From: Escherichia coli
GTDB taxonomy: Bacteria; Pseudomonadota; Gammaproteobacteria; Enterobacterales; Enterobacteriaceae
Reading direction: 5' to 3' (one strand)
Assembly (NCBI RefSeq): GCF_003334355.1
Contig: NZ_QOWP01000033.1
DNA length: 40,343 nt
Shown one piece after another: positions 40,186 through 40,343 of the stretch. The notes under the pieces were generated by a model. It saw only the letters and a list, made by a program, of their open reading frames with translations. It made no database searches and was not told the DNA's origin. Numbering within the stretch: position 1 is the stretch's first letter; each line of letters begins with the position of its first letter. Position numbers and translations under genes: made by a program.

Positions 40186-40343
40186 ATGAGCGGAAAACCG
40201 GCAGCGCGTCAGGGCGACATGACGCAGTATGGCGGTAGCATTGTTCAGGGTTCAGCCGGGGTGCGCATTGGTGCCCCCACCGGCGTGGCCTGTTCGGTGT
40301 GCCCCGGCGGAGTGACGTCCGGCCATCCGGTCAATCCCCTGCT
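40186..40343 (+). CDS. rhsA: Rhs-family protein, N-terminal 52 codons (3'-truncated by window edge)
   Basis: ATG at 40186; translation MSGKPAARQGDMTQYGGSIVQGSAGVRIGAPTGVACSVCPGGVTSGHPVNPL matches the conserved Rhs N-terminus; position after yibF as in K-12. Confidence 0.85.
   Translation, partial: MSGKPAARQGDMTQYGGSIVQGSAGVRIGAPTGVACSVCPGGVTSGHPVNPL

Follow-up and report, generated by a model that had tools for sequence, protein, structure and literature searches.

An rhs gene start at the conserved yibF-yibH site of Escherichia coli, probably the promoter-proximal end of an Ntox34-tipped effector gene

Described Rhs effectors and the rhsA locus

The first rhs element to be described was rhsA, the gene at the yibF site. 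In E. coli K-12, RhsA (b3593) and YibA are encoded at a site with selB-selA-yibF on one side and yibA-yibG-yibH-yibI-mtlA on the other. Jackson et al. 2009 (PMC2935791) give this yibF...yibH site, at ca. 3.76 Mb in K-12, as locus 10 in their catalogue of conserved rhs loci of E. coli. According to the account of Vlazny & Hill 1995 given within Poole et al. 2011 (PMC3150448), the C-terminal region of RhsA is growth-inhibitory and blocks recovery from stationary phase, and yibA neutralizes it. Zhang et al. 2012 (PMC3482391) describe Imm-HEAT immunity proteins as partners of Ntox34 toxin domains.

Among Rhs effectors with entries in the PDB, Tse5 of Pseudomonas aeruginosa (PA2684; PDB 8CP6) is the best match to the E. 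coli protein considered here (E = 2e-128, using the closest full-length homolog as proxy), with RhsA of Pseudomonas protegens also matching at E = 1.5e-81. Tse5 has the same architecture and size, i.e., an N-terminal fragment of ca. 47 aa, a DUF6531 plug, a cocoon of YD repeats, an aspartyl autoprotease, and a small tip. Its N-terminal cleavage has been mapped at K47|P48, and the resulting 5-kDa fragment, Tse5-NT, comprises a PAAR-like element required for secretion as well as residues 30-47, which the DUF6531 plug keeps anchored within the cocoon (PMC10684867). P. protegens RhsA (PDB 7Q97, class I prePAAR) shares the cocoon and C-terminal autoproteolysis at a PxxxxDPxG[W/L/F] motif and is cleaved close to its N-terminus at H304|P305 within STH|PVHAATGAK (PMC8765631). 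Its N-terminal region of ca. 300 aa comprises a prePAAR motif, transmembrane helices, and a complete PAAR domain, and the protein depends on an Eag chaperone.

The rhs gene start, its chromosomal site, and its continuation in near-identical genomes

The window, i.e., the whole stretch of 40,343 nucleotides that was analyzed, ends inside an open reading frame that opens with an ATG at position 40186 on the plus strand and runs off the window at 40343, leaving 158 nt or 52 codons plus two bases. We distinguish the following features at this end of the window:

39349 to 39957, minus strand: yibF, a glutathione S-transferase-like open reading frame of 202 aa (NCBIfam NF007682, cutoff 181 bits; E = 7e-123 with 407.7 bits)
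39958 to 40185, no strand assigned: divergent intergenic region between the start codons of yibF and rhs, 228 bp and AT-rich (from its length and a GC content of 0.37)
40174 to 40178, plus strand: Shine-Dalgarno-like AAGGA, 7 nt before the ATG (read directly from the sequence)
40186 to 40343, plus strand: 5' end of the rhs gene of the rhsA locus, codons 1-52 plus two bases (from its translation, its match to RHS_core, and its identity to E. coli PSS-12, see below)

The translation of 40186-40343 is MSGKPAARQGDMTQYGGSIVQGSAGVRIGAPTGVACSVCPGGVTSGHPVNPL, and it contains the Cys-containing segment GAPTGVACSVCPGG that had been quoted in a preliminary description of this DNA. Position 40186 is the first possible start because an in-frame TAA lies five codons upstream, and RefSeq puts the rhs start at the same ATG in the genomes examined. 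The 52 aa correspond to positions 1-52 of the NCBIfam model NF041261, RHS_core ("RHS element core protein"), with E = 8.2e-28 and 96.8 bits. This match is far above chance, and it shows that the window contains the conserved N-terminal segment with which members of the RHS family align at the beginning of the model. Together with the annotation of yibF beside rhsA in thousands of genomes and with locus 10 of Jackson et al., it backs the earlier proposal that the window ends in the start of an Rhs polymorphic-toxin gene.

The yibF gene is annotated in matching genomes and marks the conserved chromosomal site. Since it is encoded on the minus strand, the spacer is a divergent intergenic region that lies upstream of both genes. 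The preliminary description had spoken of a 228-bp AT-rich leader downstream of yibF; length and base composition hold (GC 0.37 with a profile of 0.29-0.41; the window as a whole has 0.51 and the 5' end of rhs 0.66), but in terms of transcription the spacer is not downstream of yibF. Both the yibF and the rhs promoter presumably lie within these 228 bp. A simple consensus scan of 39900-40343 for sigma-70 promoters and terminators returned neither, and an Rfam scan of the whole window gave no match in or near the spacer. The window has no tRNA genes. Searching the spacer and the start of the open reading frame for repeats yielded one weak 14-nt direct repeat and a 10-nt inverted repeat within the coding region, both of which we judge to be due to chance. 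The sole rhsA entry in a genomic SELEX study is a peak at K-12 coordinate 3764054 (PMC5493296), which we rejected as evidence on the leader because this position is inside rhsA.

The nearest genome is that of E. coli PSS-12 (NZ_AP027697.1), which shows 6 mismatches across the 40,343 bases without any indels and is identical over the last 1,590 nt. All six differences are single-base substitutions (window positions 1788, 23556, 23807, 26014, 26425, and 28503), and five of them lie at 23.5 to 28.5 kb, in the region of malS-bax-xylR-xylH. The 158 nt of the rhs start are identical to the first 158 nt of a 4,134-nt gene in PSS-12. In the three genomes closest by whole-window identity (PSS-12, isolate 2016-02-324, and MLI023K1), this gene is intact and encodes an RhsA protein of 1,377 aa, and yibA, an orphan rhs fragment, and yibG come next, with the same YibA protein (WP_000072850.1) in all three.

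The anatomy of the full gene is established in these near-identical genomes. The PSS-12 protein matches RHS_core over residues 1-1247 with 2,642 bits (cutoff 2,000) and further matches YD_repeat_2x (E = 3e-41) and Rhs_assc_core (E = 1.4e-23). Eleven of its Pfam domains are significant at E<=0.001, namely DUF6531 (residues 46-123, E = 1.4e-17), RHS, and nine copies of RHS_repeat. An aspartyl-autoprotease motif, DPIG-x18-DPLG, occupies residues 1221-1246, and PVTNTDPLGL at 1238-1247 represents the PxxxxDPxGL boundary. The remaining 130 aa form an Ntox34 tip (E = 1.4e-43) with the motifs GNVAD (GNxxD) and WNCRH (WxCxH), encoded by DNA that is AT-rich relative to the core (GC 0.40 vs 0.62). Directly after rhs, yibA encodes a HEAT-repeat protein of the immunity type. 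The preliminary description had placed the biology of interest beyond the window, and the extension that it proposed, when run in PSS-12 as proxy, indeed encounters the core, the boundary motif, the toxin tip, and yibA. Its counter-scenario of a frame that ends within a few dozen codons is at odds with the intact 4,134-nt gene of the three closest relatives, whose integrity also makes an intact Ntox34-tipped gene likely for the source genome.

[quoted passage not shown] 0.88). The correspondence to K-12 includes the site and the start codon, and K-12 RhsA and the PSS-12 proxy are both 1,377 aa long with identical Ntox34 tips and 19 substitutions that all lie in the core. Differences to K-12 are found in the strain background, which is a different, phylogroup-A-like lineage closest to PSS-12, in the yibF-rhs spacer, which is 1 bp longer in the window and has a few SNPs, and in the downstream orphan cassettes of PSS-12, which deviate in detail from the yibJ/yibS/yibW/yibV/yibU set of K-12.

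Beyond yibA, PSS-12 carries several orphan rhs fragments, the first of them a C-terminal one that goes with yibG, and a frameshifted Imm57 gene ahead of yibH, yibI, and mtlA. Within this string of cassettes (L004 8464-11037), the first orphan fragment has 318 aa and retains Rhs_assc_core and the DPxGL region, and it is followed by yibG (a sel1-repeat gene), a short rhs remnant, and the frameshifted Imm57 immunity gene. Orphan cassettes lined up in this way are what past C-terminal displacements typically leave behind.

Elsewhere, the window, which spans the region from glyS/glyQ to rhsA with glyS at 330-2399 (minus strand), is a portion of the interval that is duplicated in unequal crossovers between rhsA and rhsB selected through glyS. 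Rhs elements owe their name to these crossovers (PMC2935791). Rfam detects the sok antitoxin RNA (RF01794) at window positions 17-156 on the minus strand (70 bits, E = 1e-13), abutting the end of an IS150 transposase gene in the PSS-12 annotation (window 1-51). This combination of sok and IS150 at the start of the window is probably the chromosomal hokA/sokA locus that lies beside IS150 in K-12. A second Rfam match, the sRNA ES036 (CssrF; RF02751), is found at 18987-19029 on the minus strand, where PSS-12 is annotated with ysaA/avtA, and reaches 46 bits (gathering score 37.6).

The N-terminal fragment and the question of delivery

By alignment, the window appears to hold the whole small N-terminal fragment of the effector and to end five residues into the cocoon. 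Its 52 codons can be divided as follows:

40189 to 40272, plus strand: residues 2-29, SGKPAARQGDMTQYGGSIVQGSAGVRIG, a single PAAR-like repeat and putative adaptor to the VgrG spike (from alignment to PAAR proteins)
40273 to 40326, plus strand: residues 30-47, APTGVACSVCPGGVTSGH, a Cys-containing segment (from positional equivalence to Tse5 residues 30-47, with a role proposed on that basis)
40324 to 40329, plus strand: H47|P48, predicted N-terminal self-cleavage site (from alignment to the cleavage sites of Tse5 and P. protegens RhsA)
40327 to 40343, plus strand: residues 48-52 (PVNPL), first residues of the N-terminal plug of the cocoon, DUF6531 (from Pfam on the full-length proxy)

Four PAAR spike-tip proteins of solved structure give weak but mutually consistent alignments of residues 2-29 to their third repeat (their residues 67-98 or so), namely 9rce_c (E = 9e-4), 4jiv_D (0.011), 4jiw_D (0.27), and 8gra_J (0.84). 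Canonical PAAR spike-tip proteins (e.g., 4JIV chain D and 4JIW chain D) share with residues 2-29 the last-repeat pattern G-x-PAAR-x-GD...GG-x-[IV]-x-G-x-x-x-V-x-IG, but a canonical PAAR cone is built from three repeats whereas the E. coli segment has one and scores far below the family threshold. In the NCBIfam model T6SS_PAAR_dom (NF033420), it covers positions 68-94 of 94 with E = 0.003 and 17.6 bits compared to a cutoff of 124, and Pfam PAAR (PF05488) gave no match at E<=10 in residues 1-1200 of the proxy. A canonical PAAR domain of three repeats and ca. 95 aa, of which only the last repeat is present, is thus not encoded here, and the partial model match together with the Pfam result indicates one PAAR repeat rather than a PAAR domain. 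Residues 2-29 are best called PAAR-like, in the sense in which this term is used for Tse5-NT.

Across 45 distinct enterobacterial N-termini, the GKPAAR motif as well as D11, T13, G16, G22, G25, and V26 are invariant, and the stretch IVQGSxGVxIGAPTGVACSVCP, including both cysteines, is invariant or nearly so, with C36 and C39 kept in 43-44 of the 45. The same holds for P48-V-N-P, with P48-V49 being invariant, while residue 47 varies (N, H, S, or E) and is K in Tse5 and H in P. protegens RhsA. The E. coli sequence around the predicted site reads TSGH47|P48VNPLLGAK. The shell chain of Tse5, 8cp6_B, starts with PVNPMLGSK and is aligned to residue 48 of the E. coli protein, so that the 47|48 numbering is identical in both and only the P1 residue differs (K in Tse5, H in E. 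coli). P. protegens RhsA is cleaved between H and P ahead of a V-x-x-x-x-G-A-K motif, though the E. coli protein has only 47 residues in front of this site. The H47|PVNP motif is present, aligned, and conserved, and it is in the homologs alone that cleavage has been demonstrated; by analogy to them, we infer that the N-terminus would be cut at H47|P48. The Cys-x-x-Cys peptide of residues 30-47 would sit at the position of the Tse5-NT tail and may thread into the cocoon in the same way. Searching the PDB with residues 1-47 for the Tse5-NT chain returned PAAR proteins only, and the likeness of residues 30-47 to the Tse5-NT tail therefore builds on position and on the aligned cleavage site rather than on direct sequence similarity. 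As its edge falls just past this predicted site, the window would carry little more than the delivery adaptor of the effector.

Following Tse5, P. protegens RhsA, and related effectors, from which cleavage, docking, and delivery are carried over by analogy, the full protein would form a YD-repeat cocoon that encloses the small, variable C-terminal toxin. An internal aspartyl autoprotease (DPxG-x18-DPxG, ending in PxxxxDPxGL) would free the tip inside the shell, and the N-terminal fragment would be cut at H47|P48 yet remain attached. The PAAR-like repeat of residues 2-29 would then mount the effector on the VgrG spike of a T6SS, and after firing the Ntox34 tip would act in the target cell while YibA with its HEAT repeats, encoded immediately downstream, would protect the producer. 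The tips themselves are different, being a pore-forming toxin in Tse5 and Ntox34 in the E. coli proxy. The Rhs protein had no match among the PADLOC defense models, and YibA had just weak ones to HEAT/ARM models; an anti-phage reading of the locus finds no support in this result.

Tse5 is linked to vgrG and a working T6SS, whereas the E. coli locus has no such linkage. Neither the 40-kb window nor the 12 kb downstream in PSS-12 contains vgrG or other T6SS genes, and the neighbors of the rhs locus are housekeeping genes. The usual T6SS site at aspV is empty in PSS-12 (L007 17130-18943), where only IS1 and a remnant of ISAs1 separate tRNA-Asp from yafV, and linkage of rhs to vgrG, an Eag chaperone, or a T6SS cluster is thus absent from the window, the downstream 12 kb, and the aspV site. 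As a separate observation on this genome, a Flag-2 lateral-flagella cluster (lafA, lafU, flhA, and others) appears to be intact in PSS-12 (L006 20313 to L007 8140); K-12 has lost this cluster. Given the lone PAAR repeat, the neighborhood free of T6SS genes, and the empty aspV site, delivery of this RhsA, by T6SS or otherwise, stays unestablished, and it is by analogy to the homologs that we would expect it to travel with a T6SS.

In an alternative reading, the locus would act inside the cell as a toxin-antitoxin-like module, with internal promoters for the tip and the immunity gene and with the PAAR-like N-terminus as a relic. [quoted passage not shown] However, purifying selection acts strongly on the N-terminal delivery fragment throughout Enterobacteriaceae and the open reading frame is intact in near relatives, which would be unexpected for a relic, and the T6SS evidence in the closest genome covers the aspV site only. 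A toxin-antitoxin-like role is a reasonable rival or additional function, and delivery and toxin-antitoxin roles are not mutually exclusive. We consider it rather unlikely as the explanation of this locus. Quite improbable in our view is that the 47-residue fragment uses an undescribed way of docking, such as three Rhs N-termini per cone or a strand added to a VgrG extension, or serves in T6SS-independent export or regulation; the idea arises because a single PAAR repeat alone cannot form a three-fold cone and is yet strongly conserved even in lineages that apparently have no T6SS at the usual site.

Polymorphism of the locus and significance

The reading of the gene as an intact, Ntox34-tipped rhsA extends to a part that lies beyond the window, and its main rivals there come from the variation of the locus. 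Over its last 1,044 nt, the window has at least a partial match in every one of the 5,426 complete E. coli genomes, and in 3,745 of them the match extends over at least 80%, with annotations of yibF beside rhsA, rhsB, or RHS element core protein. At least 80% of yibF-rhsA-yibA is covered in 2,540 of these 3,745 junction genomes, while others have the core with another tip (rows of 78% coverage), an rhsB-type tip with yhhH, or no rhs beside yibF. Two genomes with identical last 1,044 nt illustrate this: in L001 (12887-17478) the gene is of the rhsB type and frameshifted, with an insertion of yhhH before yibA, and in L003 (12887-15996) a deletion, likewise frameshifted, joins the core to the orphan tip linked to yibG. 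As the locus is polymorphic across E. coli, an identical 5' junction guarantees neither an intact gene nor the same tip.

The frameshifted genes of L001 and L003 would favor the view that the source gene is a pseudogene or a truncated N-terminal fragment, broken by a frameshift, an internal stop, a deletion, or an IS element, as would the many truncated Rhs N-termini in databases, though the latter are mostly artifacts of contig ends. With the open reading frame intact at 4,134 nt in the three closest relatives by whole-window identity and the nearest genome only 6 SNPs away, we regard this as very unlikely. Among the matches listed for the N-terminal 126 aa, nearly all database relatives are short (105-221 aa) "partial" proteins, which fits a scenario in which rhs repeats break short-read assemblies just inside the gene, as at the edge of this window. 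Similarly, an intact source gene with a tip and immunity gene other than those of K-12 RhsA, e.g., an rhsB-type tip with yhhH, is hardly to be expected given that all three nearest relatives share a gene of Ntox34-type length and the identical YibA, even though only 2,540 of the 3,745 junction genomes reach 80% coverage of yibF-rhsA-yibA, with others having the core but no matching tip or yibA, or the rhsB/yhhH arrangement, and C-terminal displacement is a documented mode of evolution at rhs loci (PMC2935791).

The rhsA locus is already known, and finding it here is ordinary; with the gene annotated in thousands of genomes, its identification is small as a discovery. The practical value lies in the confirmed annotation and in having the orientation of yibF put right. 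How a lone PAAR repeat might dock is a question that concerns the whole RhsA/Tse5 class rather than this particular window.
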